NCBI GenBank assembly: GCA_020353515.1
Contig: CP070695.1
Coordinates: forward strand, 666,843-730,842
Direction: 5' to 3'
Source: Candidatus Heimdallarchaeota archaeon
Lineage (GTDB): Archaea > Asgardarchaeota > Heimdallarchaeia > Hodarchaeales > Hodarchaeaceae
DNA: 64,000 nucleotides
The notes beneath the pieces are model-generated. The model was not told the origin of the DNA. It saw only the letters and a program-made list of their open reading frames with translations, and made no database searches. Made by a program: the position numbers and the translations under genes. Shown piece after piece: positions 2,453 through 20,440 of this stretch; the stretch's first letter is position 1, and the number at the start of each line of letters is the position of its first letter.

Positions 2453-2904
2453 ACTCTTGGGCTATGTTTAATCTTCACCCGCTGTTTTTAAAGTTTAACT
2501 TACCAGAACTTTAGTTCCAAACATACACTCCTCAAATGTATCCTCATCTAAAATCAATCTGATTCTCAATAAACTAGCTAGTTGAAACTGCAATTTTTAT
2601 ATCCAAAATGGTTGTTTTTATCGATATTTAGGGAATTAATAGTTAGAAAGCGAATAAATCTAAATGTTTTACTATTTGAAACTAAATAATATGCCAAACC
2701 ATGTTATTTTCCTTCCTCAGATTCCTCTATTAATTCAAAATAAAGAAAAAAAGGTTGTGATTGGATTTATAACAAAATCAACCAGAGTATCATTTGAAAT
2801 ACATTAACTTAAAAGCAAAAGGTTTTAAGTACAATCGCAATTTAGTGTATAGATCGTTATTATTTAGCCGTCCTAGACCAGGTTATTTAGGGATTCGATG
2901 AAAA

Positions 2905-3252
2905 ATGTCACATGAAGCAGGATATTTATCACAACAGGCTCTGGAAAAGGTAATAGAATCAGTTGGTAAACATAAAGGAGTATATGGTGCTGTATTGAGT
3001 GATACAGATGGATTACCACTCCAATCTAGTCTTCCTGAAGAGGATACAGAGAGAGTAGCTGCACATGTTGCCTCTTTGGTAGGAAAAGTAAGAAGTATTT
3101 CTAGAGAAATCTCACAAGAAGAAGCCAGAAGTGTCCGGTTAGAATTAGAAGTCGGAGATGTAGAAATAATCCCTGATTATAACTCCGAGATCATTATTGT
3201 AGCACTTGTGAAACGGGAGAGTAGTACCATGACATTAACATCAAAGAAATGA
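2905..3252 (+). CDS. Roadblock/LC7 domain protein
   Basis: GVYGAVLSDTDGLPLQS motif, 115 aa; paralogous to the next gene. Confidence 0.9.
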   Translation: MSHEAGYLSQQALEKVIESVGKHKGVYGAVLSDTDGLPLQSSLPEEDTERVAAHVASLVGKVRSISREISQEEARSVRLELEVGDVEIIPDYNSEIIIVALVKRESSTMTLTSKK

Positions 3253-3270
3253 AGAGGAAGATGAAAAAAA

Positions 3271-3756: not shown

Positions 3757-4722
3757 TTGATTTTCATGAGTTATGATAGTCCTAAAACAACTCCAAGGTT
3801 TTGTGGAAATTGCGGTCAGAAGTTACTTGAGGGAGCTACATTTTGTGCCTATTGTGGGACTCAAGTACCAGCGATTGATTCAACAGGTATTCCAAGTTCG
3901 AGACCATCAACTCCATCTACTTCAATACCTCCAACTGTAACAGATAGAGGAGTTCAAGCCTATCAAGCCTCTTATAGACCAGATAGAATGATAACTGAAC
4001 CTCCACTTCCATTTACTCAGCATTTTCAAGGAGTTTTAATATCACCTCAGTTAGAAATGCCACGAATTGCCAAGCGACCGAATCTTAAGCAACCTTTTCT
4101 TGTGGTTCTGATTGTAGGGATTATCGCGGGAATCTCTTCATTTCTACTTTTTTCAAAAGTTACATTTTCACCTCAATTTGCAGAAGATTTCATTCAAAGT
4201 ATGGGTTACTCCTCTGATCTAATAGAGGGTTTTGATATAGAGTCTCTTATGCAAACCTCTCTAATGATGGGAGCTTTTGTATCCCCTCTCGGATATATTA
4301 TCAATTGGATCATTATTAACAGTATTGTACTTTGGATTCTCCATGCAATATTCTCGTCTCAAGTACCGTCTCAAGAGAGAAACTTCAAGATTATGGCAAC
4401 GATTGCAGGCTGGTCTTTCCTTCCACTAGTATTTGACGAATTAATTTATCTATTATTCGTAATTCTCTTTGTACCAGCCACCACTGTTAACTCTTTTGCT
4501 GAACTCACAGCTCTCGAAACATTTGGGTCAGTAGGTGGAATGGGGATTTTTCTTTTATTTATAAGTCTGATATTTCAGATTTGGAGTGCTATACTGGTGT
4601 ATTTCGCTTCTAAGTCAATTGATGCCAAGGGTTATCATGCAGCAATTATTGCAGTTCTTTATGCGATTGTTCCTTATGTTATATCTTACTTGTTTTCTTT
4701 CGTTAATCCACTCGGATTTTAG
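3757..4722 (+). CDS. Zinc-ribbon + Yip1-domain membrane protein
   Basis: CGNCG...FCAYCG zinc ribbon, Pro/Ser linker, then about 5 hydrophobic helices with Yip1-like layout (GVLISP...; F..MATIAGWSFLP). Confidence 0.75.
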   Translation: MIFMSYDSPKTTPRFCGNCGQKLLEGATFCAYCGTQVPAIDSTGIPSSRPSTPSTSIPPTVTDRGVQAYQASYRPDRMITEPPLPFTQHFQGVLISPQLEMPRIAKRPNLKQPFLVVLIVGIIAGISSFLLFSKVTFSPQFAEDFIQSMGYSSDLIEGFDIESLMQTSLMMGAFVSPLGYIINWIIINSIVLWILHAIFSSQVPSQERNFKIMATIAGWSFLPLVFDELIYLLFVILFVPATTVNSFAELTALETFGSVGGMGIFLLFISLIFQIWSAILVYFASKSIDAKGYHAAIIAVLYAIVPYVISYLFSFVNPLGF

Positions 4723-4794: not shown

Positions 4795-5505
4795 TCAAAC
4801 AATTCTTCGTGATTGGTAATGAACTGACATACAAAGCCATATCATGTCACCTATTCTATCAAATGTTTTGATTTCAAAAAAAGGTGACTCTATAAATGAA
4901 GAAAATGGTATTAATAGATTAAATAGGGGTATTCCTTGACCACAAATTACTGGGGCAAGAGCTAACTGGATTTCATGAAGGAGCTGTAGATTAATTAATT
5001 CACCATTCAAACGACTTCCTCCTTCTACCATTAGCTTCTCAACTTCGAAGTCTGTTTTAAGTTTGAATAGAAGTTGGTGTAAATCTGTTAAGGGCCCCTT
5101 TCCACATTCAATGACCTGACATCCCCTTTTTTCTAGTTTTGATCTTTGATTCAGCGAACATTGAGACGTAGTAGCAATAATGGTCAGAATATCTGGTCTA
5201 TGGGTTATTACTCTTGACTTCAGAGGAATTTTACCATCTGAGCTTACAACAACTCGTATAGGATGCTTATCAATTTCTGTGTCAATCAAGCTTTCATTAA
5301 CAGTCAATTTTGAATCATCAGCTTTAATAGTTCCACTTCCAACCATAATAGCGTCAGAGTCGGCTCTTAATCGATGAACTCGTTTCCAATCATCAGAGTT
5401 GGACAATTGGGTATCCCCCTCGTTTGTAGCAATTTTTCCATCAAGGCTAATTGCTGCCGATAGAAATACAAAAGGACGGGTTTTGGAAGGTTTAGGCAAG
5501 TTCAT
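4795..5505 (-). CDS. arfC: RibD C-terminal-type pyrimidine reductase (2,5-diamino-6-ribosylamino-4(3H)-pyrimidinone 5'-phosphate reductase)
   Basis: RPFV..SAAISLDGKIA, VHRLRA..DAIMVG.GT, LMVEGG motifs; no deaminase domain; start placed at ATG 5505 (ORF track extends to 5523). Confidence 0.8.
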   Translation of the reverse strand: MNLPKPSKTRPFVFLSAAISLDGKIATNEGDTQLSNSDDWKRVHRLRADSDAIMVGSGTIKADDSKLTVNESLIDTEIDKHPIRVVVSSDGKIPLKSRVITHRPDILTIIATTSQCSLNQRSKLEKRGCQVIECGKGPLTDLHQLLFKLKTDFEVEKLMVEGGSRLNGELINLQLLHEIQLALAPVICGQGIPLFNLLIPFSSFIESPFFEIKTFDRIGDMIWLCMSVHYQSRRIV

Positions 5506-6652
5506 TAGAAATAACTTCTCCATGGAAGAGATTAAGAGATATATCCTCTGGAAATTGACATCTGAAGAGTAAATTCAGAATAGGATCGTTTCCAAACGCA
5601 GTTCTGGTGCTTTGAAGATTAACTACTAAAAGATCAGCCCAATAATTTTCTTTGATGCACCCTGTAGATAGTTTTAATGCTTTTGAAGGATTGATTGTAA
5701 TAAATTTTAGCGCATTTGAAGGATTAAATGGAATATTTTGTTCTTTCAATCGTAAAATGAGCCATCGCAATTCTTCTAAGATGTTTGGGGAATTTGACAT
5801 AACATTATCTGTTCCTAGCCCAATTAAATGCGCTTTATTTAGAAAATAATCAATCGGGGGGAATCCTAATCCATAATAGGCGTTGGAACGTGGGCAAAAT
5901 ACAATGAATTTGGAGGTGGGGATTTCTTGGAGTTCATTTTCTTTAAGCTTCGTTAAATGGATAAGAATATCAGGATTTAAGTGATTTAAAGAGACCTGCA
6001 AATCTGAAAGCCCAAAACGTTTTAGGGATTCTTTGATCACCGAAATTTCTTCCCCGATATGCGTTGCTACCAAAACATGTGGAGAAGAAGTTTGATTTCG
6101 AATTGCTTCCATTTCTTTTTGAGAGTAGAGTAGTGGTGTTGCTAATCCCAATCCGTCACATTGAGAAAGTAATGTAGTCAAATTAGCTTCCAAATCTTGT
6201 CGTCCGAGGATATGAAGGTCAATTGGTAAATTTTCTACGGCTTCTCGAAGGACTTTAATTCCTTTTAAACCATTCTCTCTAAAATCGAAACATACCGCAG
6301 TTCCACTCTCAATCATTTCTATTATAGCAGATCTCATTGCAGCTACTCGGCTGACTCTAGGATATTGCTGAATTTGATATTTATGACCTTGAATCCCGAC
6401 AGCTTCATTTAAAGAGAGACCAAAAGCTTGGTTTTTTAAAATAGAGTCACCAAGGTGAGTGTGAGAATTGATAAACTTCGGGAGAAGCAGATGATGTGGA
6501 AATGAATACTCTCCAGGGGCTTCAGAATGGGATGAATTGCTTTTAATATTAGATATTCTACCTTGTTCAATCGTAACCTTTACATTTTGTTTTAGAATTA
6601 AATCGTCTCCGATTAATGCATATTTGCAGAATATATTGTGAGGAATTGCCAT
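5492..6652 (-). CDS. Metal-dependent amidohydrolase (deaminase-like)
   Basis: FINSHTHLGD (HxH), THIGE, IH, CPRSN, LGTDN, ADLLV motifs; overlaps the reductase gene. Confidence 0.85.
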   Translation of the reverse strand: MAIPHNIFCKYALIGDDLILKQNVKVTIEQGRISNIKSNSSHSEAPGEYSFPHHLLLPKFINSHTHLGDSILKNQAFGLSLNEAVGIQGHKYQIQQYPRVSRVAAMRSAIIEMIESGTAVCFDFRENGLKGIKVLREAVENLPIDLHILGRQDLEANLTTLLSQCDGLGLATPLLYSQKEMEAIRNQTSSPHVLVATHIGEEISVIKESLKRFGLSDLQVSLNHLNPDILIHLTKLKENELQEIPTSKFIVFCPRSNAYYGLGFPPIDYFLNKAHLIGLGTDNVMSNSPNILEELRWLILRLKEQNIPFNPSNALKFITINPSKALKLSTGCIKENYWADLLVVNLQSTRTAFGNDPILNLLFRCQFPEDISLNLFHGEVISNELA

Positions 6653-7106
6653 AATAGAGACACATTTCCGAATAATTCAGAGATTCCTATTGAAATGTTA
6701 ATTTGATCTAGCTTTTAATTTCAAATCATAACTATAAATAATGGATCAATATCATCTAAAATCCATTTCTTTCTAGAATGAAATAGAAAACAAAAGCTTG
6801 AAAAATTTACACATCAGGAATATAAAACAATACAGACATCAGAAATTGAAAATACAAGCTTTCAAATGATATTAGGAGGAAGAACTATTTTAATATTTAA
6901 TCTCTGAAAAAAGAAGGATTAGTAATATATATCCATAGATAACAATGAAACTATGGTTGAATCAAACTTTTTCCATACTTTAAACGTGGAATAAATACCA
7001 TAAAGATGTGTGTTATATTAGGAAAAAATAATGAAATCATGTATAAAATTACAAAAATCGTTATAAATCATAACATTTTTATAGCCCCTCAAGAAAAAAA
7101 ATTATC

Positions 7107-7206
7107 TGCCAACTATTTTCACTTGTTGGCAATAGATCACCGAAATTACGTCGGTGTGATACAGTCTGGCTGTATCGGAAAATGAACCCGCATAGGGCGA
7201 TTTTCC
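7107..7206 (+). ncRNA. Candidate structured RNA leader (four adjacent hairpins)
   Basis: Stems tgccaac/gttggca (7107-7131), caccga/tcggtg (7138-7156), gatacag/ctgtatc (7158-7176), ggaaaat/attttcc (7177-7206); TATA-like tttata about 25 nt upstream. Confidence 0.55.
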
Positions 7207-7235
7207 ACTCCAATAAAAGACAAGGAGGTTAATAA

Positions 7236-7448
7236 ATGACAATAGAAATCGAAGAGAATGTAGATCTCCAACATCGGGCTGAATTAGAGCTTTTATGCCC
7301 TTGGTGTCATACTCACACAATTACAACTATTGTAAATCATGGAACACTTCGTTTGAAGTGTAATGAATGTGGTATGGACGCTTTTGTAACCCGAATCCCC
7401 CGTAATAAAAAATTATCCGATTACGTCTCACGAAGATTAATCGCGTAA
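7236..7448 (+). CDS. Small zinc-ribbon protein (Elf1-like spacing)
   Basis: CPWC-x17-CNECG; strong SD ggaggt immediately upstream. Confidence 0.7.
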   Translation: MTIEIEENVDLQHRAELELLCPWCHTHTITTIVNHGTLRLKCNECGMDAFVTRIPRNKKLSDYVSRRLIA

Positions 7449-11741: not shown

Positions 11742-12048
11742 TGGAACAGACCAGAACTTCGGGGCTTCCACACTAGTTCGGTTGAACTTGATGGTACTTA
11801 AGACCCGAGCCCGAAAAGCATAACCCCTCGGTCTTAGGGCTGTTCATTCCCATGCCTGACCCGTTTTAACCTTGCATTCTTATTCCTCTCTCCAGAGGAA
11901 TCTCAGCAAGAGGTCACCTAGTCGGAGGATCTCTCATTGCACTTATCAAGGAGCCTTACTAGGCTTAGGCATCTCGGTTCTGGGATTAAGCTCGTCATAT
12001 AGCGTTACGATATAGCTGAGCCGCTATCCTCAGCCGCCTACTGTTCCA
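11742..12048 (-). ncRNA. ffs: Archaeal signal recognition particle RNA (7S RNA)
   Basis: 307 nt; terminal helix 1 tggaacag/ctgttcca; helix 6 ttcctct-GGAG-agaggaa; helix 8 gggUCAGGcau-GGGA-augAACAGccc; long helix 5 pairing; TATA about 25 nt upstream. Confidence 0.92.
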
Positions 12049-13348: not shown

Positions 13349-14668
13349 ATGGTGAGCCCAAGAATCATGGAAACATTCGATAGGCGAGGAGACATTCCTA
13401 TTCATTTTTTCTTAGCCCTTATTGTCTTTGATGAAGAACATGGACCTGTCTTAAACTCTTATTTGACTCATGGGTTAAAAATTCCGAAAATAATACTTCA
13501 GGGGGTTACAACTACTCTATTTACAATGGCTATTGGAGTCGGTGAACCAACAGGAGAACCTGAGACAGCAATTATTCCAATAAATGTCACAGGAATCCAA
13601 GGCCGCATATTGATTCACTCATTTGTAATTGATGATCCAGAAGCGAGAGGAAGAAATCGGATTGAAAGCTTCATGTTGTTTATTCCTCGGGCTCATCAGG
13701 ATAAATTGTTACAACACTCCTTAGCCTTCTCAAACATTCTACAAGAGGCCATCCATGAAAAAAAATATTTTATAAATAACAGTAAGCAAGAAATTTATTC
13801 CTTGGATAATGTTTTTGAAAATATCAAGAAAATACTATTAACTAAAATCGATAATACCCTTCAAGATCGAATCAGTGATATTTGTACCGATAAAGAAACT
13901 GTATTAGTTTCTGATGGAACCATCAGAGCTGTACATAACATAATTTTGTCTCCAGATATAATTTCATTAGTGAATAAAATCCCTTCACTCATACAAGATT
14001 ATGAGGATGAGCTTAAAACATTTGGAACCTTTTTTGATGCACTTCCCATCGAAATTCATGGAAAAACTTATAGTAATCACCAATTTTATATGGTATACAT
14101 TAGAAATAACTTCATAATCGCCTTTAGTTCAGGTAAAGGGCGTCTAGGAAGTCTGTTTAGAAACTTCCGTGAAATTCTTTGGAATCTAAGCTTGCAGAGT
14201 AATCTTTCTTCACAATCTTCAATATCACGATACTCAACAACAATCAAAAATGAAAGTGAGCTATTTCCTCAAAATCAGTTTTTAGACAAGAGTTTTCAAC
14301 TATTAAAGAGTTTTCAGCCAATTATTACAGATGTATCTCTTTCACGTTGTAATATGAATGTAGTAGAGACACTTCGTACAAGTTCTAATCGCATTGTAAA
14401 AAAACACGCTTTAATTTGCCAAATCTTTGAAGCTATTAACAATATTTGTTCACGCTTATTCCGAACAGATTTGGTTCAGGTAGTTTTATCTCAACATGGG
14501 ACAAATGCTATTGCATTAAAGTGGGCAACCAATAGTGAGGATGATACTTCTTTATTTATGGTTGGTGACTCCACTAAGGGAGTTGGGTTATTAAAACTTG
14601 TTGGTGAACAAGTCTTAGAATACAGAGGAAAACCTGACTCGTACACTAATATCACACCTGATTTATGA
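13349..14668 (+). CDS. uDENN/folliculin-like longin protein with C-terminal roadblock-like modules
   Basis: FDEEHGP longin start; HSFVIDDPEARGRNR resembles the folliculin/SMCR8 D..ARG..R motif; later VLVSDGTI and KGRLGSL / KGVGLLKL roadblock-like segments. Confidence 0.6.
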   Translation: MVSPRIMETFDRRGDIPIHFFLALIVFDEEHGPVLNSYLTHGLKIPKIILQGVTTTLFTMAIGVGEPTGEPETAIIPINVTGIQGRILIHSFVIDDPEARGRNRIESFMLFIPRAHQDKLLQHSLAFSNILQEAIHEKKYFINNSKQEIYSLDNVFENIKKILLTKIDNTLQDRISDICTDKETVLVSDGTIRAVHNIILSPDIISLVNKIPSLIQDYEDELKTFGTFFDALPIEIHGKTYSNHQFYMVYIRNNFIIAFSSGKGRLGSLFRNFREILWNLSLQSNLSSQSSISRYSTTIKNESELFPQNQFLDKSFQLLKSFQPIITDVSLSRCNMNVVETLRTSSNRIVKKHALICQIFEAINNICSRLFRTDLVQVVLSQHGTNAIALKWATNSEDDTSLFMVGDSTKGVGLLKLVGEQVLEYRGKPDSYTNITPDL

Positions 14669-14683
14669 TGAGGAGAACGGTTC

Positions 14684-16069
14684 TTGGAAGTAGCAGTAGA
14701 TCTACATGCTCATTCGGTCTTTGCTGGTGGAACTCAAGCTCTTGCGATAACACCAGAGAAAAAGAGTATAAACCAGAAAAAAGCTATTTCTCATTTAACA
14801 AAGACAAACCAAACAATGCCCTTAAAGGGTATCGATTTAATCGGTACAGGTGACTGTCAATTCACCTTATGGACAGAAATTCTTAAGGAAATTCTCTCTG
14901 AAGATACGGATGGAATATTTTTCCTTCAAAATAAAAGACAGACACGCTTTTTACTACAAACTGAAATGATATTTACTGCGAAAATGGGTAAATACTCAAA
15001 AGAAACACATGTTATTTTTCTTTTTCCAAATTTTCCTTTAGTAGAAGAATTTCGAGCATTACTGGACGGATGGAGGGTTAAACACCAGAAAATGGCGAGA
15101 CCATTCATTCCATGCCAATCCTCTAGTCAGGTTGCAGAACGTATTCACTCCATATTAGATTTAAATCCTTGGGTGGAGGCTATTCCCTCGCATATTATGA
15201 CACCGCAGGGTGTTTTTGGATCTGGTAAGGGAAATATTCGAGTTAATCATCTAGTTGACTTTTTTGATTCAGTTACATCAAGATTGAAAATTTTTGAAAC
15301 TGGACTATCAGCTGATCCAGAATTTTTGAGATTAATTCCAGAATTAGATGATAAAGTGTTAATTTCAAATTCTGATGCTCATTCAAGTGCCTTACATCGA
15401 ATGGGACGGGAATATACTGTATTATCTACCTCGAGAATTGCCTATAAGAGTATCATTTCAGCTTTACGTAATAATCATGTTCTATACACTGCTGAATTTC
15501 CCCCAGAAGAGGGACGGTTTTTTCTCACAGGTCACCGAGCTGGGAGGAAACGACCAGGTTTTCATGGTGAAAGTGATTACTGTTACTTTTCTCCTCAGCA
15601 TGTTCCTTCAAACGATGTCTGCCCAATCTGCAATAAATCTCTCACAATAGGTGTATTCCAGAGGTGTGTTGAGATTAGCCAAGCTCAAGAAGGAAAGAGA
15701 GAACTAGGAGATGTTATTTCCCCCAGGAAATTCATTCGTATGGTACCTTTGATAGATATATTGAGTCATGTACTAGAAATAAAAACAAAGACAGCAAAAT
15801 CTTTAGTCAACAAATATCGTCAGATTATTAACATTATAGGGCCTGAACGAATGTTATGGCAATTGACTTCTGAGGATGTTGAATCTATGCTGAATGGCCA
15901 TATAGAAAAGCCCATACTGAAGGCAATCCTCGAAGTTAAAGCTGGGGATTTCACATTTAAACCATATGGGTTTGATGGAGTTTATGGTACTTTAGTAATT
16001 GGCCAGAGGGGAAATTATAAAAATGTTAATGTGATTCATTCTTCAAAACCAATTCAACAAACACTTTAA
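14684..16069 (+). CDS. Endonuclease Q-family PHP-domain protein
   Basis: DLHAHS, GTGD, PSHIMTP, ETGLSADP, NSDAHS...MGRE, C..CPIC zinc site, GFDGVYG. Confidence 0.85.
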   Translation: MEVAVDLHAHSVFAGGTQALAITPEKKSINQKKAISHLTKTNQTMPLKGIDLIGTGDCQFTLWTEILKEILSEDTDGIFFLQNKRQTRFLLQTEMIFTAKMGKYSKETHVIFLFPNFPLVEEFRALLDGWRVKHQKMARPFIPCQSSSQVAERIHSILDLNPWVEAIPSHIMTPQGVFGSGKGNIRVNHLVDFFDSVTSRLKIFETGLSADPEFLRLIPELDDKVLISNSDAHSSALHRMGREYTVLSTSRIAYKSIISALRNNHVLYTAEFPPEEGRFFLTGHRAGRKRPGFHGESDYCYFSPQHVPSNDVCPICNKSLTIGVFQRCVEISQAQEGKRELGDVISPRKFIRMVPLIDILSHVLEIKTKTAKSLVNKYRQIINIIGPERMLWQLTSEDVESMLNGHIEKPILKAILEVKAGDFTFKPYGFDGVYGTLVIGQRGNYKNVNVIHSSKPIQQTL

Positions 16070-16112: not shown

Positions 16113-17384
16113 ATGAGGATGATCATGGTTCAGATACCTGCAAATCAAGAACTCTGTCTTCGGTGCAAAGCAGGTAAATTTCTATGTGGTCTTCATTACT
16201 GTCCAATCATCCTCAAAACGAAAGCTTTGTTGCCTGTTAGGAGGATGTTGCCCAAATTAAAAAGTAGGAAGGAATATTATGGTCCTAGTCCTCCCAGTTT
16301 ATTTGTCGGAAGGTTTGGCTATCCAAATGTTAGATTAGGTCCTATGGCGGCATTAAACTGGGAAGGAATTCATTTGATAGATGAACCTGATCTTTGGAAG
16401 ACAAATATGACATTGGAAGACGTTGTGAATCTTCGAGCTCAAATGTTTCGATTTATGGCTGAACCAGTGAAAGTTACGGATGTGACATCTTCAACCAAAA
16501 TCCTAGAAATCACACAGGAACAAATCCAATCTTCCTCACCAGTTGACTTGGAAGTAAAGTTCTCTAAGAAACCTAGGTTAAACTTAAATTTCAATCAATT
16601 TACCCAACCAATGGGTACTCGCATTAGAATAGACTCCATCCAATTGACTACCACACCTAAGATCGATCACCAGGTAGATCGTGTTGTAAGCGATTCTGAT
16701 CTGAATGCTGTCTCAGCAGTTACAAAACTATACACAACGGAAGCTACAGTTACTCAAATTTCAAGAATACTATCTGCTGGCTTGTTAGGTTTGACTAGAA
16801 GTCGGAAATTGGTTCCAACAAGATGGAGTATCACAGCTGTTGACGATATGACTGGAAATTATCTCAGGAGGAAAATTCAAGATTATCCTGAGATCATGGA
16901 TTATTTGGTTTTTCATAACTCCTATTTGGATAACGATTTCTGGGTTCTATTTATTCCTGGACGTGAATGGCATTTTGATTATCATGAGGCTTGGAAACAA
17001 AAAAGTGCTTGGAATTTAACTGGATCTGCTCCATATATCGCAACAGATACAGAAGGTCCTAAAGGACGAACATCCTATGCAACCAATACCGTCGGAGGGT
17101 ACTATGCAGCAAGATTAGCAGTACTGGAGAAATTGTTTCAGCTAAGACGAAAAGCTGCAGTTATTGCTTTTAGAGAAGTGGGAAAAGGGTATGCGATTCC
17201 ATTAGGCGTTTGGGCAGTTCGCGAAAACATGCGACAGGCACTTAGAAACCCAAGTAAAAAATTTCCTAGCTTAGATGCGGCATTAACATTCATTCATTCC
17301 CAACTGACGATACCTATGAAATATTATCACCAAAAAAGCCCATTACTTAAGCAAAAAACATTGGATGTATTCTTCAAGAAATAA
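16113..17384 (+). CDS. nreA: DNA repair protein NreA
   Basis: N-terminal C-x2-C...CG...CP, SPPSLFVGRFGYP, RKLVPTRWSITAVD, GGYYAARL, PLGVWAVRE; C-terminal PIP box QKTLDVFF. Confidence 0.93.
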   Translation: MRMIMVQIPANQELCLRCKAGKFLCGLHYCPIILKTKALLPVRRMLPKLKSRKEYYGPSPPSLFVGRFGYPNVRLGPMAALNWEGIHLIDEPDLWKTNMTLEDVVNLRAQMFRFMAEPVKVTDVTSSTKILEITQEQIQSSSPVDLEVKFSKKPRLNLNFNQFTQPMGTRIRIDSIQLTTTPKIDHQVDRVVSDSDLNAVSAVTKLYTTEATVTQISRILSAGLLGLTRSRKLVPTRWSITAVDDMTGNYLRRKIQDYPEIMDYLVFHNSYLDNDFWVLFIPGREWHFDYHEAWKQKSAWNLTGSAPYIATDTEGPKGRTSYATNTVGGYYAARLAVLEKLFQLRRKAAVIAFREVGKGYAIPLGVWAVRENMRQALRNPSKKFPSLDAALTFIHSQLTIPMKYYHQKSPLLKQKTLDVFFKK

Positions 17385-19489: not shown

Positions 19490-20440
19490 TTGTCAGTGTC
19501 AAGTATATTGCGAAGAATATTCAAAGGCAAGACAGTCGAGAAATATGAAATAACTATTGTAGGCCTCGACGGCGCTGGAAAAACCACAATTGTGAATCGG
19601 TTATTACGCTCTGAATTTGTTCCTACAACACGAACTCTGGGTGTTAACTACCGAACTGTGAAATATCGGCAGATTGAGTTCAACTTAGTTGATTTAGGTG
19701 GACAAGAAATTTATCGGAACCTTCTCTGGTATGATTCTTTAGAAAAGGCTTCAGCTATCGTTTTTGTGTTGGATAGTGCGGATCTTCGTCTTACAGAAGC
19801 ATCGAACGCGTTTTGGGACTCAATCCAACGAAATGAGAAAGTACCTGTCCTTTTTATTGCTAATAAAATAGACCTGCCAGGTGCTAGAGCATTTGACCTC
19901 ATCGTCCAGGATCTTGATTTACCACGAGCACAAAGATCTGCGAGGCCAGTGGGCCTCTTTCGAATCTCTGCAAAAACTGGAGAGAACTTCTACGACGCGT
20001 TTGATTGGGTAGCCGATGTTCTCACAGGAGAAGAATCCACATTTAAATGTAAAGTACGTGTTGTGATTTTAATAAATCTCGAGTCTCACCAGATATATAC
20101 AACTAAGTTTACAAACATAGACCGCTCTATTCTGGATCAATTAAATATGGGTATTAGTGAAACTGTAAAAGAGTTATCTAAGAACCTAACTGGGATGGAA
20201 GTAATTACTGCGTCTGATCTCCAGCTCACTATTGTGAAAAACCATCCTTTAGTGATTGGGCTTATAATTGGTTACTCAGATTCTGTCGTACGGGCTAAAC
20301 TCATTGCTGAAAGATTATTGAAAACAGCTTCAGCGTCAATTGAAATTGATCAATTTGATTCACGTGTTTTACTAAAATTAATGAAGAAACAGTGGCCCCT
20401 AGACATCTATAAACCAAAAATCCAATTTGAAATTGATTAG
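19490..20440 (+). CDS. Arf-like small GTPase fused to a C-terminal longin/roadblock-like domain
   Basis: GLDGAGKT, TRTLG, DLGGQ, ANKID, SAKTG; amphipathic N-terminal helix; about 125-aa alpha/beta C-terminal domain. Confidence 0.85.
   Translation: MSVSSILRRIFKGKTVEKYEITIVGLDGAGKTTIVNRLLRSEFVPTTRTLGVNYRTVKYRQIEFNLVDLGGQEIYRNLLWYDSLEKASAIVFVLDSADLRLTEASNAFWDSIQRNEKVPVLFIANKIDLPGARAFDLIVQDLDLPRAQRSARPVGLFRISAKTGENFYDAFDWVADVLTGEESTFKCKVRVVILINLESHQIYTTKFTNIDRSILDQLNMGISETVKELSKNLTGMEVITASDLQLTIVKNHPLVIGLIIGYSDSVVRAKLIAERLLKTASASIEIDQFDSRVLLKLMKKQWPLDIYKPKIQFEID

Follow-up and report, generated by a model that had tools for sequence, protein, structure and literature searches.

The gene and its surroundings

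The gene under study lies in a 64,000-nucleotide stretch of a Candidatus Heimdallarchaeota genome (the window, analysed here as a whole) and encodes a protein in which a longin domain is followed by two roadblock-type domains (Table 1). Translation likely starts at M7 (nt 13367), the start on which gene callers, database copies and homologs agree; residues are numbered on the 439-aa protein. The whole-chain AlphaFold2 model of that protein (pLDDT 85.7, pTM 0.83) has three domains. Promoter and terminator scans gave matches at chance level only.

Throughout the genus the gene order is constant: a stand-alone roadblock gene (12296), a zinc ribbon gene (12812), the longin gene, a PHP/TIGR00375-like gene (14684) and Nre. 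All of these sit in a long block of housekeeping genes, to which an Arf-like GTPase fusion (19490) belongs too. The PHP gene directly follows the longin gene in loci L031/L032 and L033 as well, and thus in three of the eight lineages of the longin protein's tree, which argues that this order is old.

Two further features of the window were recorded. The roadblock gene and a full-length archaeal SRP RNA (74.1 bits, E 3.6e-16) are divergently oriented; a default Rfam scan misses the RNA because its score is below the gathering score of 96.5. Nearer the start of the window a zinc ribbon-Yip1 fusion is preceded by two small roadblock-like ORFs, with a Rab-like GTPase (1385) farther upstream, a set that is syntenic in L014, L017 and L018.

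Table 1 Positions of the features discussed. Unprefixed positions are those of the window, L prefixes denote other loci, and C1 positions lie in the window's genome.
Feature	Position	Strand	Basis or remark
Two small roadblock-like ORFs	~2900-3270	+
Zinc ribbon-Yip1 fusion	3757-4722	+
SRP RNA	11742-12048	-
Stand-alone roadblock protein, 164 aa	12296-12790	+	Robl_LC7 E 0.0048
Zinc-ribbon protein, 98 aa	12812-13108	+	between roadblock and longin genes; found solely in the window's genus
Longin-roadblock-roadblock gene	13349-14668	+	intact ORF, 439 aa
Domain 1, FLCN/SMCR8-type longin	13406-13837 (residues 20-163)	+	model, structural alignment, Pfam Folliculin
F27-D28...G32-P33	13427-13447	+	sequence
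GP motif G32-P33	13442-13447	+	beta1-beta2 turn, opens beta2 (strand 32-41)
Helix alpha1 and next loop	13481-13555 (residues 45-69)	+	most conserved stretch
R100, candidate arginine finger	13646-13648	+	codon AGA; beta4-beta5 loop
Domain 2, degenerate roadblock-type alpha/beta sandwich	13853-14200 (residues 169-284)	+	DSSP order a-bb-a-bbb-a
Domain 3, roadblock fold	14276-14620 (residues 310-424)	+	structural alignment
PHP/TIGR00375-like (EndoQ-like) gene	14684-16069	+	15 bp past longin gene
Nre	16113-17384	+	after PHP gene
Arf-like GTPase with ~130-aa C-terminal extension reading like a longin or roadblock	19490-20440	+	convergent with Cdc48/p97, genus-conserved
Unannotated 146-aa gene	L023:7531-7971, L026:7496-7936, L057:54-494		directly upstream of longin gene in L023/L026
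130-148-aa protein	L025:10353-10748, L027:5799-6191, L029:8043-8489, L023:11666-12076, L022:3627-4034
Homolog of 130-148-aa protein	C1:4671136-4671570
Divergent small GTPase	C1:4671607-4672170		adjoins preceding entry
Large proteins ending in GP/Arg longin	C1:3125453-3136513, 4291997-4295962, 3191641-3195159, 335841-338009, 2903782-2905248		open frames 489 to 3687 aa
Tail fragment of such proteins	C1:338948-339190
Response-regulator receiver with C-terminal longin (L058)	C1:4481634-4482512		GP and ARG motifs

The N-terminal longin domain

By DSSP on the model, the secondary structure of domain 1 runs bb-a-bbb-aa, which is the longin order. Its top structural matches were the longins of Lst4 (VIA Z 14.7), a Lokiarchaeota protein (14.7), C9orf72 (14.4) and FLCN (14.2, with 139 residues aligned at an rmsd of 2.7 and 18% identity). 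Longins of TRAPP, SNARE and DENN-GEF proteins scored lower than this FLCN group (Z 9-11).

R100 is placed by the model between beta4 (residues 83-95) and beta5 (103-113). The preliminary description had drawn attention to residues 87-111 and had quoted a 20-residue FLCN segment containing an ARG motif; that segment is exact (residues 154-173 of 6ulg_L), and its arginine is R164, the catalytic finger of FLCN (PMC9473554). Residues 90-109 align with it without gaps (9 of 20 identical), R100 facing R164. Taken by itself the 20-residue match is within chance, as it ranked third among ~1.5 million windows of that length from the genome's reading frames, behind two unrelated ones. As this match alone is not significant, we base the argument on profile, conservation and fold.

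The Pfam Folliculin profile (PF11704) matched residues 84-137 with an E value of 2.8e-4, at 21.1 bits against a cut-off of 23.3. The same profile matched 70 of the 74 homologs (best E 2.8e-8), and the distant homologs P0069, P0071 and P0088 cleared the cut-off with 27.4, 26.0 and 23.5 bits. R100 was kept in all 73 aligned rows that cover the position and G32-P33 in all 67 that cover it, so that both are invariant among homologs down to 30% overall identity. The GP pair is given in the main text of PMC12290439 as a motif of GAP-type longins. Among nine divergent members the most conserved stretch was residues 45-69, with a mean conservation of 0.84 compared with 0.39-0.70 elsewhere. By analogy with the SMCR8-C9orf72-ARF1 structure (PMC8213707), this stretch would form the surface for longin dimerization and for the GTPase switches.

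The model thus supports domain 1 as a FLCN/SMCR8-type longin that carries the equivalent arginine on the equivalent loop. The preliminary description had proposed such a longin with the GAP arginine motif retained and an FD...GP first strand, and had suggested that an AlphaFold model be compared with FLCN; in each of these points it was borne out.

The motifs recur in the genome. At least six other proteins of the window's genome carry the same GP and Arg longin motifs, including large surface-type or receptor proteins and a receiver fusion, and there is one fragment besides. Several of the large proteins have a nearly identical tail, from which the fragment derives its sequence. Given these proteins, the arginine could be a general family trait, a point that counts against reading it as a GAP finger.

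Domains 2 and 3

The remainder of the chain is filled by two a-bb-a-bbb-a domains, confidently modelled, and DENN-type C-terminal domains are absent. Domain 3 matched LAMTOR2 (VIA Z 8.4, rmsd 3.0, 110 residues aligned), an MK-D1 roadblock (VIA Z 8.4, rmsd 2.7, 111 aligned) and MglB (Z 7.5). All of its top 11 structural rows were roadblock-type, at Z values near 8 that are modest. Domain 2 gave weak matches to mixed folds (Z 5-6.4) despite its roadblock secondary-structure order, and its Atlas feature matches at 0.86 are leads only. The preliminary description had taken the C-terminal part for degenerate roadblocks. For domain 3 the modelled fold confirms a roadblock, whereas for domain 2 the call rests on secondary-structure order. 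Profile-profile comparison found no match between domains 2 and 3, and against the partner roadblock family described below domain 3 alone matched, with a probability of just 13.8%. When domains 2 and 3 were modelled without domain 1 they formed a rigid pair (pLDDT 89.9, pTM 0.90).

We judge it somewhat more probable than otherwise that the protein acts as catalytic subunit in a GAP-type regulator built on a roadblock scaffold. The best whole-chain Foldseek rows, however, were Mon1, Ccz1 and CPLANE subunits, with E values down to 1e-8. These rows would fit a non-catalytic GTPase platform or an exchange factor, in which the three profilin-like domains would serve for docking and R100 would have a binding or structural role, like the tri-longin GEFs (Mon1-Ccz1, Fuzzy-Inturned) or like MglB. 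Such a role would also suit the observations that most longin and roadblock dimers function as GEFs (PMC10933270) and that a partner longin is not evident. We consider it unlikely. The Mon1, Ccz1 and CPLANE rows superpose poorly (TM 0.18, rmsd ~23 A), domain 1 is much nearer to FLCN, Lst4 and C9orf72 (Z 14-15) than to Mon1 and Ccz1 (Z 8), and domains 2 and 3 begin with a helix, which is the roadblock order. Moreover, the main text of PMC12290439 presents GP plus arginine finger as marking GAP longins and as absent from the GEF longins sampled there. A tri-longin reading of the whole chain in the Mon1 arrangement, as in Mon1-Ccz1, Fuzzy-Inturned and Hps1-Hps4, was rejected on the same superposition and on the roadblock order of domains 2 and 3, domain 3 fitting roadblocks better. 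The whole-chain resemblance is that of a string of related folds and not of the same machine.

Distribution of the family

The search gave 74 homologs at 88% to 30% identity, mostly labelled Hodarchaeales or Hodarchaeota, and from these labels the order of the window's genome was taken as Hodarchaeales. Among the 83 genomes of the class that were searched, exactly one copy was present in 23 of the 24 genomes of this order and none in the other 59; these genomes are incomplete, so that single absences carry little weight. Of the 16 matches that a profile search drew from 1.84 billion representatives, 12 were members of the family or pieces of them, and eukaryotic FLCN was not reached. A word-based search for longer forms found the same family only. 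Searches of PDB sequences with the protein and three family profiles reached neither FLCN nor any roadblock; the keratin and O-GlcNAcase rows that they returned were rejected as low-complexity noise. The longin-roadblock-roadblock family is confined to one order.

A co-inherited roadblock protein

An orthologue of the 12296 roadblock lies at most three genes from the longin gene in seven of the eight lineages (the window type, L033, L021, L022, L030, L031/L032 and L025/L027/L029). Where such a neighbouring roadblock has a match in the window's genome, the best one is mostly 12296, which is single-copy and stands well apart from the other roadblocks. The main division in the tree of the longin protein recurs in that of the roadblock. 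The one lineage that lacks a roadblock neighbour is L023/L026, where an unannotated 146-aa gene lies directly upstream instead.

Using alignments built in the present analysis, we predicted a complex of residues 15-430 with the 12296 protein, a partner picked on the strength of this gene linkage. The score was 0.61 (0.57-0.66), compared with 0.01 for the best of three controls; in a benchmark this value was reached by 58 of 80 solved pairs and by 2 of 110 mismatched pairs. The runs share at least 81% of their contacts, and the partner has a pLDDT of at least 77. As roadblock-roadblock complexes have been solved many times, the score may stem from likeness to them. The predicted interface involves residues 237-274 and 306-429 of the longin protein, leaving the longin free, and the first hairpin (35-43), a helix (54-68) and the C-terminal helix (148-162) of 12296. 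Conservation is no higher in this interface than in the remainder of domains 2 and 3 (0.43 vs 0.43), and the interface includes the conserved residues G264, R265 and G413 of the longin protein and D36 and G39 of the partner. We therefore predict that domains 2 and 3 bind the 12296 roadblock, whose gene the preliminary description did not mention.

Small GTPase genes near the longin gene

A single-domain small GTPase is encoded at most two genes away in four of the eight lineages. It is Rab-like in L023/L026, L025/L029 and L031/L032, and Arf-like, as a divergent neighbour, in L021. With ~55 small GTPase genes at this genome size, four of eight is above our expectation, although the lineages are not independent. 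In L031/L032 the GTPase, the roadblock and the longin protein form a tight run, located in L031 at 5000-5575, 5562-5975 and 6001-7302, respectively. The GTPases of L025/L029 and L031/L032 make up one clade (95/82, with long branches) that matches the one formed by their longin and roadblock genes. In three lineages (L022 was judged by eye) an unannotated gene for a small protein of 130-148 aa is found near the longin gene, and its homolog in the window's genome adjoins a divergent small GTPase.

Several observations speak against the GAP reading. The neighbouring GTPases span at least three clades: in a tree with the GTPases of this genome they fall in three places, none of them orthologous to a GTPase near this gene. 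There is no second longin gene as a conserved neighbour among the loci compared, and L023/L026 is without its roadblock neighbour. The window's own GTPases, 1385 and 19490, which the preliminary description had put forward as possible clients, were rejected as such: they are linked to the gene just within one genus, in a housekeeping block, and the GTPase neighbours found elsewhere belong to other clades, neither 1385 nor 19490 grouping with any of them.

Alternatively, the arginine finger could serve a Rag-like or Arf-like GTPase whose gene lies elsewhere, or the 19490 fusion, whose C-terminal domain could supply a second longin. Eukaryotic longin GAPs do act on Rag and Arf GTPases (PMC9473554, PMC8213707, bioRxiv 10.64898/2026.01.05.697756), 19490 lies ~4.8 kb downstream of the longin gene in 17 loci of the genus, and the neighbour in L021 is Arf-like. 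Such a client nevertheless seems distinctly unlikely, as the linkage of 19490 is that of a genus-only housekeeping block, 19490 and the L021 GTPase do not group together, and in three lineages the neighbours are Rab-like instead.

The DNA-repair genes that share the orientation of the longin gene (the EndoQ-like PHP gene and Nre) raise another alternative, namely that the finger serves a non-Ras NTPase or the pathway of these genes and that no small GTPase is involved. Roadblock proteins regulate NTPases broadly, and the PHP gene directly follows the longin gene in three lineages. That linkage, however, compares with seven of eight lineages for the roadblock, and to our knowledge all characterised longins with an equivalent arginine act on a small GTPase. 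We rate this alternative as very improbable.

Proposed mechanism

Under the GAP reading the proposed mechanism has three elements: (i) the longin would insert R100, which sits on its beta4-beta5 loop, into the active site of a small GTPase carrying GTP and would accelerate hydrolysis, acting like FLCN R164 and SMCR8 R147, (ii) the GP hairpin and the near-invariant alpha1 would form a docking surface for the switch regions, probably completed by a second longin, and (iii) domains 2 and 3 as a rigid unit would bind the 12296 roadblock and serve as scaffold, locator or regulator in place of the eukaryotic DENN domains. A second longin is expected because the GTPase pocket of SMCR8-C9orf72 is made of two longins (PMC8213707). 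As none is encoded nearby, it would be either the protein's own second copy, in a homodimer, or another longin protein from elsewhere. The likeliest class of client would be a single-domain Rab-like GTPase. There is a precedent for prediction from this feature: an arginine between beta4 and beta5 predicted the GAP activity later measured for Avl9 and DENND6A (bioRxiv 10.64898/2026.01.05.697756).

Discussion

The closest published counterpart of domain 1 is the group of Asgard (Heimdallarchaeia) FLCN/SMCR8-type longins in PMC12290439, which carry the GP motif and an arginine finger and for which a GAP function is proposed in the main text. Our comparison covers that main text, whereas the set of 15 sequences is in its supplement. 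As described there, those longins share with ours the domain, both motifs in the same places, the archaeal class and the proposed GAP role. The main text treats the longin alone, and in it we found neither a longin-roadblock-roadblock chain nor a roadblock partner. Domain 1 belongs to this published class, which the preliminary description did not mention, and the protein is not a FLCN orthologue because roadblocks replace the DENN domains.

With FLCN-FNIP2, SMCR8-C9orf72 and NPRL2-NPRL3 the protein shares the longin fold, the GP hairpin and the ungapped match around R164. It differs from the FLCN, SMCR8 and NPRL2 GAPs in having roadblock domains rather than DENN domains, and no FNIP- or C9orf72-like partner was identified. 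The preliminary description had pictured a single-chain precursor of a FLCN-type GAP and its scaffold. The single chain found no support, as the protein has one longin compared with two in FLCN/SMCR8-type GAP sites and a separate roadblock protein is predicted to be needed. In Avl9 and DENND6A (bioRxiv 10.64898/2026.01.05.697756) the arginine likewise lies between beta4 and beta5 of one longin, and there one chain can suffice; those proteins, however, hold the GTPase switches by means of a cDENN domain, which is missing from the archaeal protein.

In its C-terminal part the protein may be compared with Ragulator LAMTOR2/3 and MglB dimers, domain 3 having the roadblock fold and domains 2 and 3 forming a rigid pair predicted to bind a further roadblock. 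Unlike in Ragulator and MglB, one chain here joins these domains with a catalytic-type longin. In addition, domain 2 is degenerate, and no LAMTOR1-like anchor was found. Liu et al. (10.1101/2020.10.19.343400) described Asgard FLCN-like longin-DENN proteins, NPRL2-like fusions and a roadblock-Rab-DENN operon. As in that operon, a roadblock, a Rab-like GTPase and a FLCN-related gene stand side by side in L031/L032, but in the operon, which is pan-Asgard, the third gene encodes a DENN domain, whereas the longin-roadblock-roadblock family has no DENN and occurs in one order. A Lokiarchaeota roadblock-longin protein (PDB 8yqg, 8yqk), solved as a dimer, also combines the two folds in one Asgard chain and ties for the best match to domain 1 at Z 14.7. 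It has a single roadblock, placed before the longin, the reverse of the order here. In the literature searched we found no publication on that protein and no description of a longin-roadblock-roadblock protein. We thus found no earlier account of the domain chain, of its confinement to Hodarchaeales or of the roadblock partner inherited with it.

On one reading, a FLCN-type longin in the order proposed to be closest to eukaryotes would be physically tied to a Ragulator-like set of three roadblocks, and this complex would share descent with FLCN-Rag-Ragulator, making the coupling of GAP and roadblock scaffold older than eukaryotes. We see only a small chance that this holds. A precursor of FLCN plus Ragulator is unlikely because the range is narrow and there are many parallel longin fusions, and the precursor role that the preliminary description had proposed is unsupported, the family being limited to one order and the genome encoding several other longin proteins of this kind.

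According to PMC10933270, partners are difficult to infer since few of the genes lie in operons, and whether Asgard longins act as GAPs is a question raised in the main text of PMC12290439. For that question the family offers small soluble parts: the longin protein, the roadblock inherited with it and, for L031/L032 and L025/L029, a Rab-like GTPase inherited along with both. The finding is moderately surprising, since this class of domain is already in the literature and is frequent in these genomes. If the GAP reading is true, the arginine-finger mechanism of FLCN, SMCR8 and NPRL2 would predate eukaryotes and would work on a roadblock scaffold without DENN domains.
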